Below are positions 22,456-59,236 of a stretch of DNA of 64,000 nucleotides, piece after piece. The notes beneath the pieces are model-generated. The model was not told where the DNA came from, searched no databases, and worked only from the letters and a program-made list of their open reading frames with translations. A program made the position numbers and the translations under genes. The DNA lies in the sequence record OP292222.1. One strand, given 5' to 3'. The stretch's first letter is position 1; every line of letters begins with the position of its first letter. The stretch is from Escherichia phage Esco_phi_B-01.

Positions 22456-22515
22456 GCAATAGAAATTTATTAAAAATAGTGTATAATGTACCTACATTCA
22501 CTTGAGGAACAGATA

Positions 22516-24189
22516 ATGAAAAAGGTTGTTATTTTAGGCGCAGGTCTTGGCTCACGGTTGTATCCAATTACTAACGAAATCCCGAAGGTATTGGTTAACT
22601 ATAAACAACATACGGTATTAAAGCATTTGTATGATTTGTATAGTAACCAATCAGATGAAATTATTCTGGTTATTCACAGCAAATTTAACGACCTCGTTAA
22701 AGGCTATATTAAATCCATTAACATGATTACTGGTGATAAGCCTAAATTCACTATTCGTAACGTTGATGTTGCTAATGGTTCAGCTCATGCAATCGATTGC
22801 ATTGCCGAAGATATCATTGGCCATAATGTCCTGTTTAACTGGTGTGACATCATTCCTATCGGTCATAAAGTTGAATGGGGTAACGACTACTGTTATACCT
22901 ATGGAACTGACTGTCGTTTTACATTTGAAGAACCGTACTTACGTGAAATTGGTACTGGTGGCGGTGTAGTTGGTTTGTATCAGGTAGCCAATTGGACAGG
23001 TTTCGACCGTTCTAATTATGGTGAAGACCTTGCTGATAACCTGGATTCAATGGTCTATTTGACCGAACGTAAACTGGATTTTGTAGTTGATGTCGGTGAC
23101 AAATTGAAACTGGCTAAGGCCCATGAAGAATCTGAAATTAACCGTGAATTTAATAAATTAGAATTCACCGAGAATCTGGCTATTAAAGTACCAACTAACG
23201 AATTAGGTAAAGAAATTCAATCTAAAGAAATCAATTGGTATAATTCTATTGATTCTGAATTCGTTCCTAGCATTGTAGACTTTTCTCCAGGCGAATTCAT
23301 TAAAATGGAACGTATCTTTGGTCGAACCATGGCAGATGCCTACCGGTTTATGTCCAAAGAAACTAAAGTCCTCATGGTTTATAAGGTCATTAGTGCATTA
23401 CGTTCATTTGGTGGAACTATTGATAACCCGTCCGATGAGCAATGGTATTCCGATGTTAAGAAAGAAGTATTGGACAAGGTCCTTATTCGTAATGCTTCTA
23501 TTGCTGGATTGATTGAAGGCTTTGCTCCACAGGGCATTACCCATGTTAACGATTTCAAAGTAGGCGACCCTGAAAAACTTCTTCGCCATGCACTAGAAAT
23601 TCTGTCTGAACATAAAGAACCGTACCAACTTATTCATGGCGACCCGCACTACAGTAATATTATGCTGTCGGACGAAGGTGATATTAAAATCATCGACCCA
23701 CGTGGTTATTTCGGTAATAGTTCTAAAGGCCCTGCGATTTATGATGAAGCTAAGGTGCTTTATTCTATCGATGGCTATGACAAATTTAACTCAGACCCTC
23801 TATGGGGCGGATTAACTCGTAACGGAACTCGTGTATTCGTTGATATCGAAAAGATTATGCCTTTAGACGATATCCCTATGTGCACATTTAAGCACAAGCT
23901 CTGGATTGCTGTTATTTGGATGGCTCTGGCAGGTTACTTTAAGAATAACCCTCTGAAAGCTCTAGGTGCTTATTATAACGGTTTGTACCAACTGAGTGTG
24001 CTGCTGAAGCGGCATCCTCGTAAGCGTAAGCTTATTACGGGTGAATTTGTCGATGAAGTTCGTGACCCTATTACGGCTCAAATTATTACTCGTTGTCCTG
24101 ATAAGTGGGTTTTGCTTGACCAGGAAACTGGTGTAAAATATAAACCTACAGGTTCTACTGAACTCCACAAACAATGGAAGAAAATTTAA
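22516..24189 (+). CDS. bifunctional nucleotidyltransferase / protein-kinase-like phosphotransferase
   Basis: N-terminus ILGAGLGSRLYPIT...PKVLV (sugar-phosphate nucleotidyltransferase G-x-G-x-R signature); C-terminus HGDPHYSNIML ... IKIIDPRGYFG (Brenner HxDxxxxN + downstream D, APH/choline-kinase-like); start at ATG after SD gaggaa. Confidence 0.75.
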   Translation: MKKVVILGAGLGSRLYPITNEIPKVLVNYKQHTVLKHLYDLYSNQSDEIILVIHSKFNDLVKGYIKSINMITGDKPKFTIRNVDVANGSAHAIDCIAEDIIGHNVLFNWCDIIPIGHKVEWGNDYCYTYGTDCRFTFEEPYLREIGTGGGVVGLYQVANWTGFDRSNYGEDLADNLDSMVYLTERKLDFVVDVGDKLKLAKAHEESEINREFNKLEFTENLAIKVPTNELGKEIQSKEINWYNSIDSEFVPSIVDFSPGEFIKMERIFGRTMADAYRFMSKETKVLMVYKVISALRSFGGTIDNPSDEQWYSDVKKEVLDKVLIRNASIAGLIEGFAPQGITHVNDFKVGDPEKLLRHALEILSEHKEPYQLIHGDPHYSNIMLSDEGDIKIIDPRGYFGNSSKGPAIYDEAKVLYSIDGYDKFNSDPLWGGLTRNGTRVFVDIEKIMPLDDIPMCTFKHKLWIAVIWMALAGYFKNNPLKALGAYYNGLYQLSVLLKRHPRKRKLITGEFVDEVRDPITAQIITRCPDKWVLLDQETGVKYKPTGSTELHKQWKKI

Positions 24190-24572
24190 TGTCGTATCGA
24201 GTAGAAAATAAGCCACATTTATGTTTTGATATCGATAACACAATCACGATTTGGAACCATGACCGTGATTATGAGAACTTTAAACCGGACACCGAAATGG
24301 TGTCCATGATTAATAAGCTTTATGATGAAGGGTACGAGATTACATTGTTCACCGCGCGTGGCATGACTTCATGTGGCCCAGGTCGAATCTTGGTTGAAGT
24401 AGTTCCTGCCTTGGTTAAGAACCTTGAAAAAATTGGATTGAAATATCACAATTTGCTTACACATAAGCCGAGTTATACTTTTATCATCGATGACCGAGCA
24501 ATCCGTCCTGACCACTTTAAAGAAATGGTTCGTGAAGGAACTCTTGATGGTTATAAGGCCTATCATCCATGA
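24189..24572 (+). CDS. small HAD-superfamily phosphatase
   Basis: motif I FDIDNTIT (DxDxT), motif II LFTARG, motif IV IIDDR; alternative start 24174. Confidence 0.7.
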   Translation: MSYRVENKPHLCFDIDNTITIWNHDRDYENFKPDTEMVSMINKLYDEGYEITLFTARGMTSCGPGRILVEVVPALVKNLEKIGLKYHNLLTHKPSYTFIIDDRAIRPDHFKEMVREGTLDGYKAYHP

Positions 24573-25105
24573 ATCCAAAAATCATTGTTATAGACGGCCC
24601 GGATAATTCCGGGAAGTCCACTTTAATTAAAAATCTGTTATCCAATAAGAAATACCGCCTTATTGATTTTCCTAAAAAGATTAATGGCAAGTGTATTTCA
24701 TTAGGAACTGATAACGATAAGGCTTTAGTTGAAACTCTGTATAAGTTTTTAGACCCTAATTTCGTTTATATCCTTGACCGTGGTTATCCAAGTAATATTG
24801 TTTACTCAGGATTCCTTCGTGGTGAAATGGACCCTTATGTAGAACTGGAAGATTGGAAAGGGTTTAAATCTGAATTTAACGTTATCGAGGTTATTTTAAC
24901 TCGCAACCCATTAGACGAAGACTTCGAAGACGACCTTATTAAATTAACCGAAGATGAGTTCAACCTAACTATCCGGCAATACGAAACATGTTTTGAAAAC
25001 GTGTTTAAAATCTTAAATCATGACGGCCATAATAATTTGCTTAATGTTGATATGGTAGAATTAAAACGTCTGAACGAATATATTGAAAATAAGGTGAATA
25101 AATGA
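24569..25105 (+). CDS. thymidylate-kinase-like P-loop NMP kinase
   Basis: P-loop IVIDGPDNSGKST and DRGY..S..Y motif resembling Tmk DR(Y/H) region. Confidence 0.65.
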   Translation: MNPKIIVIDGPDNSGKSTLIKNLLSNKKYRLIDFPKKINGKCISLGTDNDKALVETLYKFLDPNFVYILDRGYPSNIVYSGFLRGEMDPYVELEDWKGFKSEFNVIEVILTRNPLDEDFEDDLIKLTEDEFNLTIRQYETCFENVFKILNHDGHNNLLNVDMVELKRLNEYIENKVNK

Positions 25106-25800
25106 AACACATTACCGCTGTTAGTTTTGAAAATGCATTTAAACAAATGAACGAAGAAATCCTGGAAGCTCCACAGTTTGCAGTTGATTCTCGTATCGGA
25201 CGTTGTTATGAAATTGGTTCTGCTTCGGTAGAAGTACTGGATGCAAGCACCTATAAATTCACCGACCCACGTATTAATCGTATTAGTTATGAATATGCCG
25301 AATCCTTTTGGAAATTTATGATTTCTGGTGGTACTGACGCTGCCGAAGCATTTAAGGAATACCCTAATGTTGCTAAGTTCATTGATAAGCCGAAAAGTGA
25401 CGTATTGCCTGCAAACTTCAACACTTTCTATGGACCTCGAATTGTGGCCCAACTCCCAGCCCTACTTAAAGAGCTTAAAGAAAAGGCTAACTCGCGAAGA
25501 GTTGTGTTCCAGATTCTCCAAGAACAAGACCAAGCCCTCCTTGATTCTGACGAATCCTTAGAATATCCGTGTACCGATTCGGTAACGTATTATATTCGTG
25601 ACGGACGTTTGTATGCACACACCCATATGCGTTCACAGAACTGCGCTGTTGTTATGCAGCTGGATTTCTATCTGCAGGGTAAACTGATGGCATTTATTGC
25701 TGAACAGTGTGGTGTCGGTTTAGGTACATATTCCCACACCATGGTAAGTGCACACGTGTTTGAACGCGATTTTGACTACGTCCGAGGTTTCCTGAAATGA
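25102..25800 (+). CDS. 42: deoxycytidylate hydroxymethylase (thymidylate synthase superfamily)
   Basis: SRR, catalytic Cys in PCTDS, YYIRDG, MRSQN, and Asp in QLDFY at the position that confers cytosine specificity in T4 gp42; Glu/Trp in AESFWKF. Confidence 0.82.
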   Translation: MKHITAVSFENAFKQMNEEILEAPQFAVDSRIGRCYEIGSASVEVLDASTYKFTDPRINRISYEYAESFWKFMISGGTDAAEAFKEYPNVAKFIDKPKSDVLPANFNTFYGPRIVAQLPALLKELKEKANSRRVVFQILQEQDQALLDSDESLEYPCTDSVTYYIRDGRLYAHTHMRSQNCAVVMQLDFYLQGKLMAFIAEQCGVGLGTYSHTMVSAHVFERDFDYVRGFLK

Positions 25801-26690
25801 GTTTGTTTATCGTTCCTATTTTCAGTATGCGTAGTTACGAAACAGGTGAATATGCCGTCCTTAAGGACGGCAATTTTCAACTCCATTTAAATCGTGCTCG
25901 TCCAGGTGATTATCTGGCTTATCCTAGAAATTCGAGCGATATCAAAGAATGCATTGAATTATTCCCGGAACTGAATTTCGTACCACTTTGGTATAAAGAA
26001 AATGCTTATGAAACCCGTAAACATTTCTGGTCTGAAAATGAGTTTGTAGTCGATTCACTAATCGAATACTACGATTGCTCAGGACTGGTAACTGATATCA
26101 CCGGTTATGATGGTGCTCACACTGTACAATTCAACTTTAATATCACAATGGACCCTGAAGTTCCTCGTTATTATATCGACGAGTTCATTGATATTGATGT
26201 GGCTTCAGTTGAACGTTCACTTTATACTACAGTCCTGAATCAATGCCAGAAAGACGTCCTGGTGTCACGAGGTGCATCCTCTGATAAGATTTTTGTAGAC
26301 CAAAAGGTAATTAATCCTGCAGTAATTGAGCGTTACTCTGAAGGTCTAGCGCCTATTAAAATTGATGGTATTTTCCATCCATTCCGTATTTCGGATAAGT
26401 GCTATCAATTCGAAAGAGTTGTAGACCAAGCTGCCGCTGAAGGTGCTCGTCTTTATATCACTGACCCGAATGATTCATTTAAGCGTGAAGACTATCGTCC
26501 TGATGTAGAGATTATTAAATTCAAACCGAGTAAGGTTGAATATTATCAAATTCTGAAATCAAGACCACATATCATTTATCATGAGAACCCAGGTTTAGTA
26601 TTCCATCCTGGTCTGGCTGAATTCATTTATTTCGGTGCCAATATTCATTCTGAATACGAAATGCCACGTTATGAGGACGTAGTATGCTAG
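25797..26690 (+). CDS. hypothetical protein (297 aa) occupying the beta-glucosyltransferase slot between 42 and uvsX
   Basis: ORF; no recognisable motif; position only. Confidence 0.55.
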   Translation: MSLFIVPIFSMRSYETGEYAVLKDGNFQLHLNRARPGDYLAYPRNSSDIKECIELFPELNFVPLWYKENAYETRKHFWSENEFVVDSLIEYYDCSGLVTDITGYDGAHTVQFNFNITMDPEVPRYYIDEFIDIDVASVERSLYTTVLNQCQKDVLVSRGASSDKIFVDQKVINPAVIERYSEGLAPIKIDGIFHPFRISDKCYQFERVVDQAAAEGARLYITDPNDSFKREDYRPDVEIIKFKPSKVEYYQILKSRPHIIYHENPGLVFHPGLAEFIYFGANIHSEYEMPRYEDVVC

Positions 26691-53344: not shown

Positions 53345-54724
53345 ATGGCTGATGTAATTGATACCCTTTTTAAACAATCCTTAGATGTTTACGATGATGC
53401 TTTTACTCGTCGTGACTTAAAAAGCATTATCGACAATGAAGCGCTGGCTTACGCAATGTATACTGTCGAAAACCGCGCCATTCCAAATATGATTGATGGC
53501 TTTAAACCCGTACAACGTTTTGTAGTTGCTCGTTGTCTTGATATGGCTCGTGGTAATAAAGAAAAATTCCACAAATTAGCTTCTATTGCAGGTGGTGTAG
53601 CCGACCTTGGATATCACCATGGTGAAGGCTCTGCTCAAGAAGCAGGTGCTCTGATGGCTAACACTTGGAACAACAACTTCCCACTGTTGGATGGCCAGGG
53701 TAACTTTGGTTCTCGATTGGTTCAAAAAGCAGCGGCATCTCGTTATATTTTTGCACGTATTGGAACTAATTTCGCAAAGGTTTATAAGGATACAGAATAT
53801 GCTCCGGTTCATGCGGATGTCGAACATAAGCCACCAGCTTTTTATCTGCCTATTATTCCTACTGTTCTTCTTAATGGTATTTCCGGTATTGCAACTGGTT
53901 ATGCAACTAATATTCTTCCTCATAGTTTTGATTCTGTTAAGAAAGCTGTATTGCAGGTTCTTCAAGAAAAACGCGTAACCAAGCCTAAGGTGGCTTATCC
54001 GGAATTCCGTGGTGATGTGGTTGAGATTGAACCAGGTAGTTATGAACTACGAGGCACGTATAAGTTCACATCTCGAACCCAAATGCATATCACAGAAATC
54101 CCGTACAAATACGACCGTGAAACGTATGTGGCCAAGGTATTAGACCCTCTAGAAGACAAAGGGTATATCACATATGATGACGATTGTGACGAGAATGGTT
54201 TCGGCTTCAAGGTTAAGATTCGTAAAGAATATGAATTGCCTACTGAAGAAAATAAGAAGCACGAAAAAATCATGAAGGACTTTGGGTTAATCGAACGCCG
54301 TTCACAAAACCTGACTGTCATTAATGAGAAAGGTAAACTTAAGGTTTACGAAGATGCAGTTGAACTGATTCGTGATTTCGTTGAGGTCCGTAAGACCTTT
54401 GTACAAAAACGTATTGATGGTAAAATCATCGAAACCGAAGAAGCTTTCAAACTGGCATTGGCTAAAGCCACCTTTATCAAAGATGTTATTGATGGAATTG
54501 TGGTTATCCAAGGTAAGACTCGTAAGGTTTTAACCGAAGAATTGGCTGGTAATAAAGTCTACGGCGAATATGCCGATAAACTCGTAGCAATGAATATTTT
54601 CCATATCACTTCCGATGAAGCTAAGAAACTGGCTTTGGAAGCCAAGGCTAAGAAAGAAGAGCACCAATACTGGAAAACCACTGATGTTGTAACTGAGTAT
54701 GTTAAAGATTTGGAGGCTCTATGA
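53345..54724 (+). CDS. 52: DNA topoisomerase II medium subunit gp52 (GyrA-like)
   Basis: similarity recalled to T4 gp52 N-terminus; IDGFKPVQRF GyrA-like motif. Confidence 0.9.
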   Translation: MADVIDTLFKQSLDVYDDAFTRRDLKSIIDNEALAYAMYTVENRAIPNMIDGFKPVQRFVVARCLDMARGNKEKFHKLASIAGGVADLGYHHGEGSAQEAGALMANTWNNNFPLLDGQGNFGSRLVQKAAASRYIFARIGTNFAKVYKDTEYAPVHADVEHKPPAFYLPIIPTVLLNGISGIATGYATNILPHSFDSVKKAVLQVLQEKRVTKPKVAYPEFRGDVVEIEPGSYELRGTYKFTSRTQMHITEIPYKYDRETYVAKVLDPLEDKGYITYDDDCDENGFGFKVKIRKEYELPTEENKKHEKIMKDFGLIERRSQNLTVINEKGKLKVYEDAVELIRDFVEVRKTFVQKRIDGKIIETEEAFKLALAKATFIKDVIDGIVVIQGKTRKVLTEELAGNKVYGEYADKLVAMNIFHITSDEAKKLALEAKAKKEEHQYWKTTDVVTEYVKDLEAL

Positions 54725-54825
54725 GCCTTGGAGTCGAGTTCTTGTTACTCTGTATCTTTGCTGTTATCCTAGGCCTGGCAACAGGCTTAGCTATAGGTTT
54801 AATAGCGGCTCACTTTAAAAAGTAA
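54721..54825 (+). CDS. small membrane peptide (34 aa)
   Basis: ATGA overlap with gene 52 stop; hydrophobic. Confidence 0.35.
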   Translation: MSLGVEFLLLCIFAVILGLATGLAIGLIAAHFKK

Positions 54826-54848
54826 GGAACCTTCGGGTTCCTTTTTTG
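54824..54848 (+). terminator. rho-independent terminator (aggaacc-ttcg-ggttcct + T6)
   Basis: stem-loop + T-run. Confidence 0.75.
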
Positions 54849-54866
54849 GGTTTAGTGCAAAAAAGT

Positions 54867-54895
54867 GTTTACATCTGCTTTAAACATGATACTAT
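54867..54895 (+). promoter_or_regulatory. early promoter, PeSL-like
   Basis: motif; repeat family. Confidence 0.6.
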
Positions 54896-54943
54896 AGACC
54901 TATCAAATAAATGAACTGAAACAAACAACCCGGAGATACAAAA

Positions 54944-55171
54944 ATGAAATTTAAAATCGAAAACGAAATCGTTAAAGCTAAAAATGCTCTGACTGCTAAC
55001 AAACTGGTTGTAGATGGTATTGAATATGATATCTGTGGAGTTCGTGAAGAAAAACCCGGTGTTCTGACTTTCTTCACAATGATTTTTAAATTTAAAGGTG
55101 TCACAGAATTCAAACAGTTTGATTTTGCCCCTGAAGACGAAATCGAAGTTCGTAATCTGAACATTAAGTAA
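54944..55171 (+). CDS. hypothetical protein (75 aa)
   Basis: ORF after PeSL. Confidence 0.5.
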   Translation: MKFKIENEIVKAKNALTANKLVVDGIEYDICGVREEKPGVLTFFTMIFKFKGVTEFKQFDFAPEDEIEVRNLNIK

Positions 55172-55210
55172 GTACTTTATTAGAGCTCTTGAAAAAGAGC
55201 TCAAAATAAA

Positions 55211-55239
55211 GTTTACTTCTGCTTTAAACATGATACTAT
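55211..55239 (+). promoter_or_regulatory. early promoter, PeSL-like
   Basis: motif; near-identical to 54867 copy. Confidence 0.6.
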
Positions 55240-55273
55240 AGACCTATCAAATAAATGGTTATCGGAGATTAAA

Positions 55274-55906
55274 ATGTCTAAAATTACTTACATCATCAAA
55301 GCTTCTGAAGACGTCCTGAATGAAAAAACGGCTTCTATCTTAGTACATATCATCAAGAACAACTTCATCACTTCAGGCGAAGTCCGTGAAGCCCTGAGTG
55401 AACAATTTAGTGCAGCGGTAGTTAACTCTAACATCGGTGTATTGATTAAGAAAGGATTCATCGAAAAATCTGGTGATGGACTGGTGGCTACAGGTGAAGC
55501 AATGGACCTAGTTCAAAAAGCTGCCGACCTGTTCGCTTCTGAAAATGCTCCAGAGATGTTGGAAAAACGTAAAACTCGCAGTTCACGTGGTGTTACTCCT
55601 GAAATGGTAGTATTGGCTGATGAAGTTAAATCTTTGTTAGAAGACCGTATCGAGATTCGTGAAATCGCTGAAAACCGTAGCAATCTTGAAGTTCGATTCG
55701 CTAAACGTACCAATGGTATTCGTCAAATCGAAGTCCGTCGTGACGGAATGATGCGTATCTTCGGTTATAATATGACCGATAAAGAAAAACAAGTGTTTAC
55801 TTCTTTGAATCTTGATGTTAAGATTAAGACCGGTGGTAAGAATACTTATATCGACTTCCAAAACGTATCATCTGAAGTTATCAAAACCGTAACCAACGCA
55901 ATTTAA
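55274..55906 (+). CDS. motA: middle-transcription activator MotA
   Basis: similarity recalled to T4 MotA (MSKITYIIKAS.DVLNEKTA, NSNIGVLIKKG..EKSGDGL). Confidence 0.9.
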   Translation: MSKITYIIKASEDVLNEKTASILVHIIKNNFITSGEVREALSEQFSAAVVNSNIGVLIKKGFIEKSGDGLVATGEAMDLVQKAADLFASENAPEMLEKRKTRSSRGVTPEMVVLADEVKSLLEDRIEIREIAENRSNLEVRFAKRTNGIRQIEVRRDGMMRIFGYNMTDKEKQVFTSLNLDVKIKTGGKNTYIDFQNVSSEVIKTVTNAI

Positions 55907-55924
55907 CTGACTGAGGAAATTATT

Positions 55925-56254
55925 ATGAACAAGCTGAATATTGTTAATGAACTTCGTCGTTGTGCAGAACCTACTCAAGAAGGTTGGGATATTTGGTACC
56001 ATGGCGCTTATCTTGGAACTATTGTTAAGATTAAAGCGGGTAAATACTTAATCATCCGTGGTGGTTCTGAAGCTTCTATGGGAATTCGTAAGAACTTTAT
56101 GGCAGCCATCAGCACCTTTGTTCCAGCTGCTTATGAAGTCTATAAAGCCGACTACAAAGAATACCAGGAATCACAACCAGTTATTCGTTCAATTGGTGTT
56201 AATAAAGCTCAACAGAAAACTTTATGGCAACGTATTAAAGGATGGTTCAAATGA
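55925..56254 (+). CDS. hypothetical protein (109 aa)
   Basis: RBS ctGAGGAAAttattATG. Confidence 0.55.
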   Translation: MNKLNIVNELRRCAEPTQEGWDIWYHGAYLGTIVKIKAGKYLIIRGGSEASMGIRKNFMAAISTFVPAAYEVYKADYKEYQESQPVIRSIGVNKAQQKTLWQRIKGWFK

Positions 56255-56406
56255 AAACATTTAAAATTGTCGTAGAATTTTATAACGGCGAAGGTGTGGT
56301 CCATCTTAAAGCAGCCAACCAATTTGATGCTGTAAGAGTATATTGTCAATGCTTTGAAAGTTCCAAAAAGGCCATAAAAATCAAAAGCGTTGAGGAAACC
56401 AAATGA
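56251..56406 (+). CDS. hypothetical small protein (51 aa)
   Basis: ATGA overlaps on both sides. Confidence 0.4.
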
Positions 56407-56867
56407 AACCCTTCAAAGAGCGTCTTGAATTATTAGACCTGGCTTTATCACGTGAGACCCCTGAAAGTCTTGCTGCTAAATTCCAGTCATATGGATACGC
56501 CAACTATACAGAAGAAGATGTTCTAAAAGAAGTTCCTGAAATCTGTTGGCAGATTGCTCATTGGAACAACAATGAAAAATATCAGCGACGAATTGTGTGT
56601 GCAGCCAACCGCTTTAAGTTAAAAGACGGCGGGACTTTGGTTATTCCTGGCGCTCGTCATTATTCAAAAGATATGGCGGAAGTGCTTGACCAAGTAAGTG
56701 ATAAACTTGTGTCAGAGCATGTTTGTGGTGATGACCAAGGATTTATCGACCAATATTCAAACTATTGGACTCGCGAAGAAGCAATGATTATTGCAACATA
56801 TGCTAATCAAGTTCGTATTGAACGTGGTGGTAGTGAAAAAGAACTTTACTCTGAGGACCTTTACTAA
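56403..56867 (+). CDS. hypothetical protein (154 aa)
   Basis: ORF. Confidence 0.55.
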
Positions 56868-57148
56868 TGAATCTTAAACAACTCCAGATTGATGCAATCG
56901 AAGCCCATATCAACCATATTAAACGTCTGAATGTTATGGTGGAAGACAACTGGGGAACTTATGTCAACCAACCGGCTTGGGATGCATTAGACCATGAATA
57001 TATAAAGAATATTAGCTCCAAGACAATCCATGGGAATATGGAAGGGTTGAAGCCGTTCCTACGTGATATGTATATTGCAACTAATAAAGAAATTATCAGT
57101 TCTCTTGAATATCAATTAAGGAAATTACGTGAACAATCTGGTAGCTAA
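56867..57148 (+). CDS. hypothetical protein (93 aa); Arn-like by position/size only
   Basis: location between motA and asiA, where T4 encodes arn. Confidence 0.45.
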   Translation: MNLKQLQIDAIEAHINHIKRLNVMVEDNWGTYVNQPAWDALDHEYIKNISSKTIHGNMEGLKPFLRDMYIATNKEIISSLEYQLRKLREQSGS

Positions 57149-57237
57149 GCACGATTTCAATAAGGCTTCGGTCCATAAGGACAAGAAGAAAAATTTTAAA
57201 GAGTCCAAGCGTAAGCAGAAACATAAGGGTAAAGGGT

Positions 57238-57402
57238 ATGAGTCATAACTTAGAGAATACCGTAACAGGTATGCGTACGCGTGAGCAGGAGTGCTTTGAG
57301 GAATTCCTAGGAGCTGATTTTAAGTTCCAGGAACCTATTGAAGAAATGTATCAGGAATATGTTGTACGGATGAAAAATCATGTGTACAACCTAGAAGAAT
57401 AG
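57238..57402 (+). CDS. hypothetical acidic small protein (54 aa)
   Basis: ORF. Confidence 0.35.
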   Translation: MSHNLENTVTGMRTREQECFEEFLGADFKFQEPIEEMYQEYVVRMKNHVYNLEE

Positions 57403-57460
57403 TGTTACAATATTCTTACTGAATAAATGAATGTCCTATTGAATACTTGAGTAAATTAAA

Positions 57461-57736
57461 ATGACTAAAATTGAAATCGTTTCCGAAATTGCTACTATTG
57501 TTTCCATTTTGATTAAAACGGATTGTGAAGACATCATGCAACGCCGTGATGAGTTTATTGCCTTTTTGAATGAGTTAGGTATTCGTAATGAACATGGAAA
57601 GGAACTTAACGGTCTATCTTTTAATAAACTCTTTAAGTCTTTAACTGAAGATGAACGTGATACTCTTATTGAGCAATTTAACGAAGGGTATGAAGATATA
57701 CACCGTTATCTAATGATGTATACCTCCAATTTTTAA
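57461..57736 (+). CDS. asiA: anti-sigma-70 protein AsiA
   Basis: similarity recalled to T4 AsiA (IVSEIATIVSILIK, FIAFLNE.G, LIEQFNEGYE..HRYL.MYT). Confidence 0.9.
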   Translation: MTKIEIVSEIATIVSILIKTDCEDIMQRRDEFIAFLNELGIRNEHGKELNGLSFNKLFKSLTEDERDTLIEQFNEGYEDIHRYLMMYTSNF

Positions 57737-58386
57737 CGAGTTCGACCTAATGTCCTCCCGGCCTGACCACACATAGACGAAAGTCTAGGAAATCCTAAAT
57801 CCGGTTTGGTATCGTACCAATATAATGATATCGAGCCGGCATAGATGTTATCCAAATTAAAAAACGGGCATGAAAACATATACGTGAATTGGGTTTTCTT
57901 CTTTGTAGGAAGGAACACAGTTTCTGTACTTGATTCAAAATAGTTTCCGTTAACTCCCGCCATATATTCTACTGACGTTTTGTCAATTGGAAACCCTCCC
58001 GTATTTTTTGCGTCTACCGTTTCCGGTAATTTACCCTCATAAGCAACCATATCCACAAAATAATTCATGTTGGTTGGTCTAAAAGAATATATTGCTGTGA
58101 AGTCTGCGCCTGAAGAAGAATGCACTATTCGGAGCTGCTCGATAGCCGCAATTTTAAATCTATTGTCCTGGTCTTGTCTAATCATTTCAGTATAAGAGGC
58201 ATAAGTTGTCTCTTTATAAAAGTTTAGAATATACTCGCCTTTATACCAAACTAATGCCATAAAGAACAATAATATTACGACTAGGACCCGGGAAAAAACT
58301 ACTTTCCCGGAAGAAGTATCTTTAAAAATTCTATCAAGAAGTCCAAAAAGTAGGTCTGATAATGAAAATCCTACTTTTGGTTCCAT
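57733..58386 (-). CDS. t: holin (T-type)
   Basis: similarity recalled to T4 holin t (LLFGLLDRIFKD, VVILLFFMA.VWY, YSFRP.N.NYFVD..AYEGKLP); converges on asiA. Confidence 0.9.
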   Translation of the reverse strand: MEPKVGFSLSDLLFGLLDRIFKDTSSGKVVFSRVLVVILLFFMALVWYKGEYILNFYKETTYASYTEMIRQDQDNRFKIAAIEQLRIVHSSSGADFTAIYSFRPTNMNYFVDMVAYEGKLPETVDAKNTGGFPIDKTSVEYMAGVNGNYFESSTETVFLPTKKKTQFTYMFSCPFFNLDNIYAGSISLYWYDTKPDLGFPRLSSMCGQAGRTLGRTR

Positions 58387-58428: not shown

Positions 58429-59205
58429 TTATACCCAAGACCCGTAAATAGTACCTGTGGCACCCCATGAAGGACTATTACCACTTACAGCAGGCCCTGC
58501 AGCTCCAGGTGGAGACATGGATACACTGCGTCCATAACCCCAGCCGCCTGCAGCGCCTGCGTCACCGCCCCAACCGCCACCAAACTGTCCGCCGGCATCC
58601 CCGGGACCACCGGCCCCAGCATAACTAGCGTTACCGCCAGGTCTATAACTAGTTGCACCACCTAACCCGAATGGTCTGCCACCGCCACCGCCGCAGGTTG
58701 AGCCAGAAGGATAGCTATTTTGCAATGATGTAGCACCGCCACCACCGCCACCACCACAGATAACACCATAGTTCCATATGCGTAAACGCCCACCAATTTC
58801 ATTATAAATTGCTGTACCGCCTTGTTGGCCTCCACCGCCATTGGTTGCGCCATTACCACCGCGTCCCCACATATGAACCCCACCATGAATATTCAAAGTA
58901 ACGTATTCGTTAGGGATGTCACTATTCATAAAGAACAATGGAAGGTCTCTAGTATAAGATACTAAATCGCCGGTGATATTAAACACAATAGGTGCAGCGC
59001 CGGCTTCAAAACAACGGTCTCTAAACCAATACCCGTTGAAGTTGTGGTCCGCCCCAAGTGTGTGAATTATTTCAACAGACCGACCTATCATATTACTCAT
59101 CCAAAATGGAACACCCATTCTCAATCGTTGGGCTGCTCCTGCCATCCAAGGGTCCCCAGTTTGTACCCTTGCAGACCATCCTACCCACGGTCCTTCAACT
59201 GCCAT
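58429..59205 (-). CDS. 38: gp38 receptor-binding adhesin with glycine-rich motifs
   Basis: N-terminal region recalled as gp38-like ([37 protein letters not shown]); multiple poly-Gly runs; start at ATG with SD ggagg (track start 59217 is TTG). Confidence 0.85.
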
Positions 59206-59236
59206 ATAAACCTCCAAGGGGCCTAGGCCCCTCTTA

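Follow-up and report, generated by a model that had tools for sequence, protein, structure and literature searches.

The motA-asiA interval of a Dhakavirus is very probably a T-even arn operon without arn

The window analysed here, 64,000 nucleotides of Escherichia phage Esco_phi_B-01 (OP292222.1), comes from a Dhakavirus and shows 92-97% DNA identity to Ec2-ASingh, dhaeg, QL01 and JS10. Between its motA and asiA genes lie six tightly coupled ORFs, encoding in order Arn.4, a 51-aa protein (orf51), Arn.3, Arn.2, a 39-aa protein (orf39) and an AsiA.1-like protein. All six are on the + strand, as are the genes that bound them: motA on the left, for the middle-transcription activator (55274-55906; Pfam MotA_activ 4.8e-39, MotCF 1.9e-13), and asiA on the right, for the anti-sigma-70 factor (57461-57736; Pfam AsiA 2.4e-22), each with a product 52% identical to its T4 namesake by blastp. 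The original prediction described four ORFs of 51, 154, 93 and 54 aa at 56251-56406, 56403-56867, 56867-57148 and 57238-57402. These coordinates stand, but the four do not fill the interval as was claimed: arn.4 (55925-56254) lies outside the range considered, and the GTG-started orf39 was overlooked. Because each of the four has a strong PHROG family match (E 1e-22 to 3e-72) and low pN/pS values against QL01 and JS10 (0.0-0.4 overall), as expected under purifying selection, they are real genes and not chance reading frames.

In T4 the corresponding order is motA, arn.4, arn.3, arn.2, arn.1, arn, asiA.1, asiA, and the choice of the T4 arn neighbourhood as a frame for this locus proved sound, with three of the ORFs being orthologues of Arn.4, Arn.3 and Arn.2. 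Orthology was assigned from blastp of each window ORF against each T4 interval protein, tblastn in the reverse direction, shared PHROG membership and the annotation of JS10, in which the block reads arn.4/arn.3/arn.2. The block is ordinary, previously annotated Dhakavirus gene content. A search of NCBIfam returned no match, nor did Rfam over 54700-57800 at E up to 1, and phmmer and profile searches of PDB sequences with Arn.3, Arn.2, Arn.4, orf51 and the AsiA.1-like ORF gave nothing significant.

The first gene, arn.4, starts 18 nt past the motA stop and encodes a basic protein of 109 aa (pI 9.7; phrog_1594, 1.4e-53; annotated arn.4 in JS10). Both its place right behind motA and its similarity to T4 Arn.4 mark it as a member of this family: its last 68 aa and the 68 residues of the T4 protein share 79% identity (E 2e-39, blastp), beyond which the window protein has 41 more N-terminal residues than the T4 annotation. 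Its pN/pS is 0.10. The slot that follows, between arn.4 and arn.3, is variable. Here it holds orf51, which encodes 51 aa from an ATG at 56251 (54 aa in the longest ORF, from 56242), falls in phrog_15636 (7e-40) and is 92% identical to QL01 gp258 (pN/pS 0.09); it is without a T4 counterpart, and in JS10 and dhaeg the same slot carries an unrelated 116-aa ORF (phrog_14178).

At the other end of the block, orf39 (57129-57248) overlaps its neighbours on both sides, arn.2 at its end and the AsiA.1-like ORF at its start, and so fills what had looked like unoccupied sequence between the ORFs of 93 and 54 aa. Its 39-aa product (pI 10.2; phrog_1359, 1e-22) passes the Pfam threshold for DUF7230 (PF23876; E 6e-13, 49.1 bits against a gathering cut-off of 27), the gene is annotated in both JS10 and QL01, and its differences from them comprise 7 synonymous changes against 0-3 non-synonymous ones (pN/pS 0-0.09). 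The AsiA.1-like ORF at 57238-57402 encodes an acidic protein of 54 aa (pI 4.6; phrog_5245, 8.8e-34) that shares 46% identity with T4 AsiA.1 over its 24 N-terminal residues (E 7.5e-5, blastp); T4 AsiA.1 itself cross-matches phrog_5245 at 2.6e-4, and pN/pS against QL01 and JS10 is 0.26-0.40.

The best conserved protein of the interval is Arn.3 (56403-56867; 154 aa), with 77% identity to T4 Arn.3 (E 1e-89, blastp), membership of phrog_839 (2.6e-72), homologues that carry the precomputed Pfam label PF26092, and a pN/pS of 0.12 against QL01 and JS10. It is built of two parts: two helices form a module at the N-terminus (residues about 2-31), and a widespread core domain of ~95 aa follows. Alongside the T4 similarity, the window protein has the motifs of this core, (G/N)Q among them, with 12 columns invariant over 50 diverse homologues, and ends in LYSEDLY. 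The family comprises 3010 clusters at 50% identity, and Pfam recognised no N-terminal partner domain in ten of its long and short members. An AF2 model (mean pLDDT 89.7) shows helices at 4-16 and 20-29 and a compact alpha/beta domain for which Foldseek found no fold match in the PDB (best E 0.05, TM about 0.2). The core fold also has weak matches among the conflict-related 'large polyvalent proteins' of phages.

The N-terminal module suggests one specific, if improbable, function. The PADLOC profile PD-T4-9_B, 77 positions long, aligns its positions 2-31 with residues 2-31 of the window protein (E 6.3e-6, hmmscan); it is also matched by Arn.3 of JS10 (1.8e-8) and, most weakly, by Arn.3 of T4 (2.6e-3), and an unrelated Klebsiella Jedunavirus protein with the same module and no Pfam domain scores E 3e-9. 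We infer from gene order and length only that PD-T4-9_B is CmdA, the antitoxin of CmdTAC, which has been described as an N-terminal helix pair plus a disordered tail (PMC11618068); the two modelled helices of Arn.3 fit this helix pair. PD-T4-9 (CmdTAC) protects against T-even phages (PMC11618068). It is conceivable that Arn.3 is a two-part counter-defence protein, in which the helices imitate the toxin-binding part of CmdA and serve as a stable decoy for CmdT-like mRNA ADP-ribosyltransferases, and the core, with its weak matches among conflict-related proteins, adds a second, possibly enzymatic, anti-defence activity. Arn.3 has no CmdA-type disordered chaperone-addiction C-terminus and no ClpXP degron of the LAA kind, its remainder being a confidently modelled globular domain, so that without a protease-sensitive tail it would keep CmdT neutralised and would act once the host antitoxin is degraded. 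We nevertheless think this proposal unlikely. The match covers 30 residues of amphipathic helix that many Arn.3 homologues lack altogether, PD-T4-9_B is equated with CmdA by gene order and length only, and possession of the module (E 3e-3) does not save T4 from strong restriction by CmdTAC, the T4 escape mutants lying in alt.-3 and not in arn.3 (PMC11618068). Furthermore, the phage encoding Arn.3 is lytic, and no ART toxin or SecB-like chaperone lies beside its gene, whose neighbours are orf51 and arn.2. Searches with the 5' end of arn.3 against E. coli genomes (blastn) and for CmdA against plasmids (tblastn) found no match; a pattern scan of GTDB genomes for CmdA returned one spurious, out-of-frame match in a Planctomycetota HflX gene. 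The combination of a CmdA-like module with a phage domain whose very large family is structurally unplaced makes Arn.3 a reasonable candidate for anti-defence screening.

Downstream of arn.2, the slot that holds arn.1 and arn in T4, and an acidic Arn-like ORF in JS10, is precisely empty in the window. Alignment of the DNA with JS10, QL01 and dhaeg reveals a clean 292-bp indel whose junction, with CTATGA microhomology, lies at 57233-57244 (+ strand). In JS10, CUA3 and IME341 the 292-bp cassette sits exactly between orf39 and the AsiA.1-like ORF and encodes an Arn-like protein of 93 aa that is very acidic; it is missing from the window as from most Dhakaviruses, the junction being contiguous in the same way in 55 of the 60 records listed. 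Nor did tblastn with T4 Arn and the JS10 Arn-like ORF find an Arn homologue elsewhere in the 64-kb window (best E 0.36). The JS10 protein and T4 Arn show reciprocal PHROG cross-matches at E 0.003 and 0.005, and hhalign aligns them end to end with P 0.0013, against 0.27-0.74 for controls, at a probability of only 18%; these values are suggestive of true homology, and we call the protein Arn-like.

An empty Arn slot raises the matter of a substitute. DNA mimics are typically small acidic early proteins, and two block proteins are acidic, the AsiA.1-like protein and Arn.3 (pI 4.95), either of which might have taken over the job of Arn as a non-homologous mimic. We consider this very unlikely. T4 carries orthologues of both alongside Arn, and they therefore do not replace it; what the Arn.3 model shows is no array of acidic surface residues but a compact alpha/beta domain in which Arg, His, Gln and Asp residues are invariant; and at least 11 other small acidic ORFs occur in the window, so acidity does not discriminate.

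The emptiness of the slot can be set beside the DNA modification genes of the phage. The product of 25102-25800, a dCMP-modifying enzyme, has 80% identity with RB69 gp48 and 24.5% with T4 gp42, and the window has homologues of RB69 gp45, gp46:47, gp51 and gp52:53 (RB69-type sugar-activation genes and glycosyltransferase); a beta-glucosyltransferase (b-gt) homologue was not found in it. Nor does it have a homologue of RB69 gp3 to go with the gp46:47-type glycosyltransferase, and a mono-arabinosyl form of the modification is predicted accordingly. RB69 gp48 is a 5-hydroxy-dCMP synthase, and its pathway has been proposed to reach the Dhakaviruses (PMC13326640). By its gene content the window thus encodes the arabinosyl-5-hydroxycytosine pathway of the RB69 type and not the hmC glucosylation of T4. 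Bona fide Arn occurs in 485 phage records, each at least 88% identical and all of them T4-type, and the RB69-type phages have at the same slot a different acidic family or, as here, nothing. The suggestion that the anti-restriction set may have diverged together with the modification is accordingly borne out at the level of clades, true Arn tracking the T4-type glucosyl-hmC phages. A need to shield hmC DNA that is not yet glucosylated from McrBC would explain the retention of arn in those phages, and this pressure is probably absent, or different, with arabinosylated 5-hydroxycytosine. The relationship between modification type and absence of arn is nonetheless no more than a correlation: with the same modification genes, the RB69-type Mosigviruses and a few Dhakaviruses have retained an acidic Arn-like ORF at this position, which is therefore not simply without use in such phages. 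The distribution of true Arn, of the different acidic proteins and of empty slots offers a natural comparison set for finding out which restriction systems see 5-hydroxycytosine DNA.

These observations frame the identity of the 93-aa ORF (56867-57148), which the original prediction took for a possible counterpart of Arn on account of its size and position. The size is indeed close (93 against 92 aa), but the position is that of arn.2, with the start codon overlapping the arn.3 stop. Blastp aligns the protein with T4 Arn.2 over its full length (98 columns) at 38% identity (E 2e-21), both proteins fall in phrog_1844 (8.6e-41 for the window ORF, 1.2e-51 for T4 Arn.2), and the product is 99% identical to that of the JS10 gene annotated arn.2. 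Homologues carry the precomputed Pfam label PF26819, and pN/pS against QL01 and JS10 is 0.02-0.04. T4 Arn, in contrast, is an acidic DNA-mimic inhibitor of McrBC (DM_Arn, PF22134; PDB 3WX4), which the 93-aa protein resembles only in length and general neighbourhood. Alignment with T4 Arn had been proposed as a check, with a lack of similarity counting against the idea, and lack of similarity is what the sequences gave: blastp found no match to T4 Arn at E up to 10, and the DM_Arn profile, which T4 Arn matches at 8.3e-56, found none at E up to 0.1. Predictions of charge and structure, likewise proposed as signs of DNA mimicry, point the same way. The protein is near-neutral (pI 6.40, net charge -1, against pI 4.55 and -9 for T4 Arn), and its predicted secondary structure differs, the AF2 model (pLDDT 82.5) being an all-helical hairpin with helices at 3-32 and 52-92. 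Foldseek found nothing in the PDB for this model at E <=0.001, returning only generic coiled-coil or helical hairpins at E above 1, and the Arn structure 3wx4, which was contained in the PDB sequence set searched, was absent from its best 50 matches.

It is scarcely credible that the 93-aa ORF is still an Arn that diverged as the DNA modification changed and that acts as a DNA mimic against a modification-dependent restriction enzyme. The similar length, the location between motA and asiA and a modification truly unlike that of T4 are outweighed by its clear homology to Arn.2 (which T4 encodes separately from Arn), its failure to match DM_Arn, its near-neutral charge, its helical model with 3wx4 missing from the 50 matches listed, and the presence in close relatives of the 93-aa gene plus a separate acidic Arn-like ORF. 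Sequence comparison therefore identifies the 93-aa ORF as Arn.2 and not the acidic DNA mimic Arn, and we regard it as very probable that the interval as a whole represents the T-even 'arn operon' as it occurs in Dhakaviruses, here without arn. This removes a false lead. It also bears on annotation, as 'anti-restriction nuclease' labels on homologues of Arn.2, Arn.3 and Arn.4 reflect name propagation from arn.2-arn.4 and not functional evidence.

The arrangement of the genes suggests a single message. Successive junctions in the block are ATGA (arn.4 stop and orf51 ATG), ATGA, TAATG, a 20-nt overlap and an 11-nt overlap, and there is no terminator-like site on the + strand from motA to asiA. 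Upstream of motA, at 55210-55257 (+ strand), lies an early promoter-like element of the sigma-70, T4-early type (GTTTACT, 16-nt spacer, TGATACTAT), where the motA-arn transcript probably begins; a near-identical 47-nt copy at 54866-54913 scored as promoter-like with an extended -10. A consensus scan only gave a further promoter-like site ahead of asiA (57383-57411, + strand; TGTACA, 17 nt, TACAAT, with TG). No good MotA box plus -10 was found ahead of arn.4, and a weak MotA-box-like site lies at 56683, inside arn.3. In T2, the genes from arn.4 to arn are covered in RNA-seq data by a single, abundant middle transcript (bioRxiv 10.64898/2026.06.19.733364). The six genes would most likely share one early/middle polycistronic message that begins at the promoter ahead of motA, with coupled translation. 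We infer this transcript structure from the sequence together with the T2 data, and internal middle promoters are possible.

The middle transcript of the T4/T2 arn operon is stabilised against RNase E by the host sRNA ArcZ (bioRxiv 10.64898/2026.06.19.733364), which in T4 pairs at +285..+294 of arn.2 (CCAGGGAAAT). This pairing sequence was not found in the window interval, and the 3' end of the window arn.2 gives -13.3 kcal/mol with ArcZ, equal to the background mean. The intergenic region with the RNase E site after arn.2 is absent, orf39 overlapping arn.2 instead. Control by ArcZ and RNase E of the kind known from the T2 transcript therefore cannot work in the same manner here, where neither the pairing site nor the intergenic region is present and both arn.1 and arn are missing. 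A further ArcZ duplex, predicted within arn.2 at 57006-57037 (-23.5 kcal/mol), was set aside: it lacks conservation among relatives (-19.1 in JS10, -19.1 in dhaeg and -14.1 kcal/mol in QL01) and is matched by 1.2% of background windows.

What the retained proteins do can be framed in general terms. We found no demonstrated function of Arn.2, Arn.3 or Arn.4 in any phage in the literature; they are most plausibly accessory proteins of host takeover or counter-defence, and Arn.3 would be the best candidate in the block for a specific activity.

Compared with the arn operon of T4 and T2, the interval shares its location between motA and asiA, the order arn.4-arn.3-arn.2 and proteins 79%, 77% and 38% identical to those of T4. 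It differs in missing arn.1, arn, the RNase E site together with the 70-nt intergenic region that contains it, and CCAGGGAAAT, and in having orf51 and the DUF7230 gene orf39 as extras. Among the Dhakaviruses in GenBank, JS10, QL01, dhaeg, Bp7, IME281 and MN04 show 92-97% DNA identity over the interval; Arn.3 of JS10 and dhaeg has an N-terminus 8 residues longer than that of the window, and QL01 has a gene content equal to that of the window.

The 93-aa ORF at 56867-57148, which the original prediction had put forward as an Arn counterpart on size and position, is not Arn. Pfam DM_Arn is matched by T4 Arn (8e-56) and not by this protein, which is close to neutral (pI 6.4, net charge -1) whereas T4 Arn is an acidic DNA mimic (pI 4.55, net -9). 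An AlphaFold2 model from 21 homologues (pLDDT 82.5) folds as a hairpin of two long helices, and the 50 PDB matches listed for it contain generic coiled coils only, without the Arn crystal structure 3WX4. The missing DM_Arn match, the near-neutral charge and the helical-hairpin model rule out Arn; the protein is the orthologue of Arn.2 (38% identity to T4 over its full length, E 2e-21). No counterpart of T4 Arn or arn.1 was found anywhere in the 64-kb window.

The T4 interval (motA, arn.4, arn.3, arn.2, arn.1, arn, asiA.1, asiA) was retrieved and all its proteins were compared pair by pair with the window ORFs. The 154-aa ORF (56403-56867) is Arn.3 (77% identity to T4, E 1e-89), a 109-aa ORF directly 3' of motA (55925-56254) is Arn.4 (79% identity over the full 68 residues annotated in T4), and the 54-aa ORF (57238-57402) has its first 24 residues in common with T4 AsiA.1 (46%, E 7.5e-5). 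The relationships to Arn.2 and AsiA.1 are confirmed by shared PHROG membership, and the JS10 authors gave the names arn.4, arn.3 and arn.2 to the corresponding genes. The 51-aa ORF (56251-56406) and a 39-aa, GTG-start ORF (orf39, 57129-57248) have no counterpart in the T4 motA-asiA interval by pairwise comparison. Arn.4 is also 109 aa long in other Dhaka- and Mosigviruses, the extra N-terminal part lying at 55925-56047 in the window; in T4, the place of the first 41 codons is taken by a 133-nt gap 3' of motA.

All four ORFs originally predicted (51, 154, 93 and 54 aa) were recovered, each with a PHROG match at an E value no higher than 1e-22. In comparisons with QL01 and JS10, all four show a large excess of synonymous over non-synonymous changes (pN/pS 0.09 for the 51-aa ORF, 0.12 for the 154-aa, 0.02-0.04 for the 93-aa and 0.26-0.40 for the 54-aa), and on this sequence evidence the four are real genes. 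They do not, as had been proposed, fill the interval by themselves: with the 109-aa ORF and orf39, both left out, it holds six. The latter closes what looked like a gap between the 93-aa and 54-aa ORFs. Its DUF7230 score exceeds the Pfam threshold, both JS10 and QL01 have it annotated, and it differs from them by 7 synonymous and 0-3 non-synonymous changes. In VR7 the DUF7230 ORF is named "arn.1" despite having no similarity to T4 Arn.1.

Dhakaviruses are T-even-type phages of E. coli, and the sequenced members (Ec2-ASingh, dhaeg, NC-G, QL01, JS10, Bp7) are 92-97% identical to the window at 55200-57800. The block, flanked by Pfam-confirmed motA (55274-55906) and asiA (57461-57736), is an ordinary and conserved one that the annotations of many Dhakavirus genomes already include. 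Downstream, the opposite strand carries holin t, a glycine-rich gp38 adhesin and gp37; the 262-aa glycine-rich ORF (58429-59217, minus strand) looks like a T2/T6-type gp38 adhesin, and G+C peaks locally there at 0.54, the surrounding sequence being at about 0.38. The arn.4-arn.3 slot is variable, holding a 51/52-aa ORF (phrog_15636) in the window (56251-56406) and QL01, and an unrelated 116-aa ORF (phrog_14178; 1555-1905 of relative locus L001) in JS10 and dhaeg. In the Mosigvirus Shigella phage phi25-307, annotation gives the ORF at the place of arn.3 a length of only 90 aa (372-644 of its locus, L012), and a 72-aa ORF stands in for orf39; from genus to genus, therefore, the arn block is a mosaic.

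The slot that Arn would be expected to occupy is empty in the window, and in JS10 an extremely acidic 93-aa ORF (pI 4.05, net -15) sits exactly there, between orf39 and the AsiA.1-like ORF. Its C-terminal residues are EDYID, those of T4 Arn EDYFE. The JS10 protein matches the Arn PHROG and T4 Arn matches that of the JS10 protein, both matches being full-length (E 0.003 and 0.005), and hhalign aligns its family with T4 Arn end to end (P 0.0013; 0.27-0.74 for three control proteins). This Arn-like ORF is probably, though unproven, a homologue of Arn. In a DNA alignment a clean 292-bp indel, with the hexamer CTATGA at its borders, sets JS10 apart from the window, QL01 and dhaeg; the start codon lies inside this hexamer, and the window's AsiA.1-like ORF therefore begins at the start point of the JS10 Arn-like ORF. 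Among the 60 relatives listed, 55 have the contiguous, window-type junction and only JS10, CUA3 and IME341 carry the insert. The same acidic family occupies the slot in 166 Mosigvirus-type records (32-37% identity), and bona fide Arn occurs in 485 records, every one of them T4-type and none below 88% identity.

Arn shields unglucosylated hmC DNA against McrBC, and it had been suggested that the anti-restriction set might have co-diverged if DNA modification here differed from that of T4. The genes do point to such a difference. An RB69-type cytosine hypermodification cluster (22486-26690) includes a thymidylate-synthase-fold ORF (25102-25800) that is 80% identical to RB69 gp48 and only 24.5% to T4 gp42; its neighbours are a 567-aa fused nucleotidyltransferase-kinase homologous to RB69 gp52:53, a gp51-like phosphatase, a gp45-like kinase and a single 297-aa ORF that is the counterpart of RB69 gp46:47 (arabinosyltransferase 1). 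No homologues of RB69 gp3, gp50 or gp55 were found in the window, T4 beta-glucosyltransferase has no match there, and the alpha-gt place of T4, between genes 55 and 47, holds no ORF of comparable size. Lee et al. showed that RB69 gp48 is a 5-hydroxy-dCMP synthase and that RB69 DNA contains arabinosylated 5-hydroxycytosine, and proposed from synteny that the pathway extends to Dhakaviruses (PMC13326640). Taken together, the gene set, the missing b-gt match and that work make it almost certain that this phage produces no glucosyl-hmC DNA. The absence of Arn is consistent with this, and co-variation with DNA modification is reasonable, true Arn being confined to T4-type phages; it is nevertheless a correlation, as relatives with the same pathway keep the Arn-like ORF.

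A 47-nt T4-early promoter-like element (GTTTAC, 16 nt, TGATACTAT) lies just 5' of motA at 55210-55257. A near-identical 47-nt copy (54866-54913; shared form GTTTAC(A/T)TCTGCTTTAAACATGATACTATAGACCTATCAAATAAATG) follows a terminator-like hairpin (54824-54843) and precedes a 75-aa ORF (54944-55171, phrog_10955). Over the stretch running from motA through the AsiA.1-like ORF, no terminator-like site was found on the plus strand, and the junctions are an 18-nt gap followed by overlaps of ATGA, ATGA, TAATG, 20 nt and 11 nt; asiA has a separate promoter-like site. The block would thus form one polycistronic early/middle message, with translation of its ORFs probably coupled. In T2, arn.4 to arn form a single abundant middle transcript, on which the host sRNA ArcZ pairs at arn.2 nucleotides +285 to +294 and protects an RNase E site in a 70-nt spacer 5' of arn.1 (bioRxiv 10.64898/2026.06.19.733364). 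T4 has the exact ArcZ complement CCAGGGAAAT at the same place in arn.2. Unlike the T2/T4 transcript, the window block lacks the CCAGGGAAAT site, the spacer, arn.1 and arn, none of which is present in the window. A second candidate ArcZ duplex within arn.2 was rejected as background-level and not conserved.

We found no published function for Arn.2, Arn.3 or Arn.4, and the "anti-restriction nuclease" labels widespread among their homologues in GenBank records of relatives seem to reflect nothing more than propagation of the names that the genes bear, arn.2, arn.3 and arn.4. Arn.3 is the most informative of the retained proteins. Among 50 diverse homologues its core, which takes up approximately the C-terminal 95 residues, shows 12 invariant positions, most of them polar, and ends in a conserved LFSEDLY; the core belongs to a family of 3010 clusters at 50% identity (exhaustive profile search). 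Many members are stand-alone proteins of 87-110 aa; some are extended at the N-terminus by long stretches in which Pfam recognises no domain. The Arn.3 model is of high confidence (pLDDT 89.7); no counterpart was found among solved structures, and predicted viral structures returned only uncharacterised phage proteins and weak "large polyvalent proteins" matches.

Most members lack the N-terminal 30 residues of Arn.3 (residues 2-31, 56403-56500; F.ERL.LLD.AL(S/T)(R/K)ETPESLA), which match the N-terminal part of PADLOC PD-T4-9_B (E 6e-6; 2e-8 for JS10 and 3e-3 for T4 Arn.3). This module, common to the N-termini of T4-like Arn.3 proteins, also lies inside an unrelated 320-aa protein of Klebsiella Jedunavirus Geezett (1501-1590 of its locus, L008; E 3e-9). 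PD-T4-9, also named CmdTAC, is a toxin-antitoxin-chaperone system that uses an mRNA ADP-ribosyltransferase to abort infection by T-even phages, and its antitoxin CmdA is described as having two N-terminal helices followed by a disordered, ClpXP-sensitive tail (PMC9519451, PMC11618068). Together with the profile match, the helices modelled in Arn.3 at residues 4-16 and 20-29 suggest that it could mimic the antitoxin. Such a role is nonetheless improbable: T4 is restricted by CmdTAC although its Arn.3 has the module, T4 mutations escaping CmdTAC map elsewhere, and the "B" profile is only presumed to represent CmdA. The possible resemblance of Arn.3 to CmdA is the one thread in the block worth follow-up.
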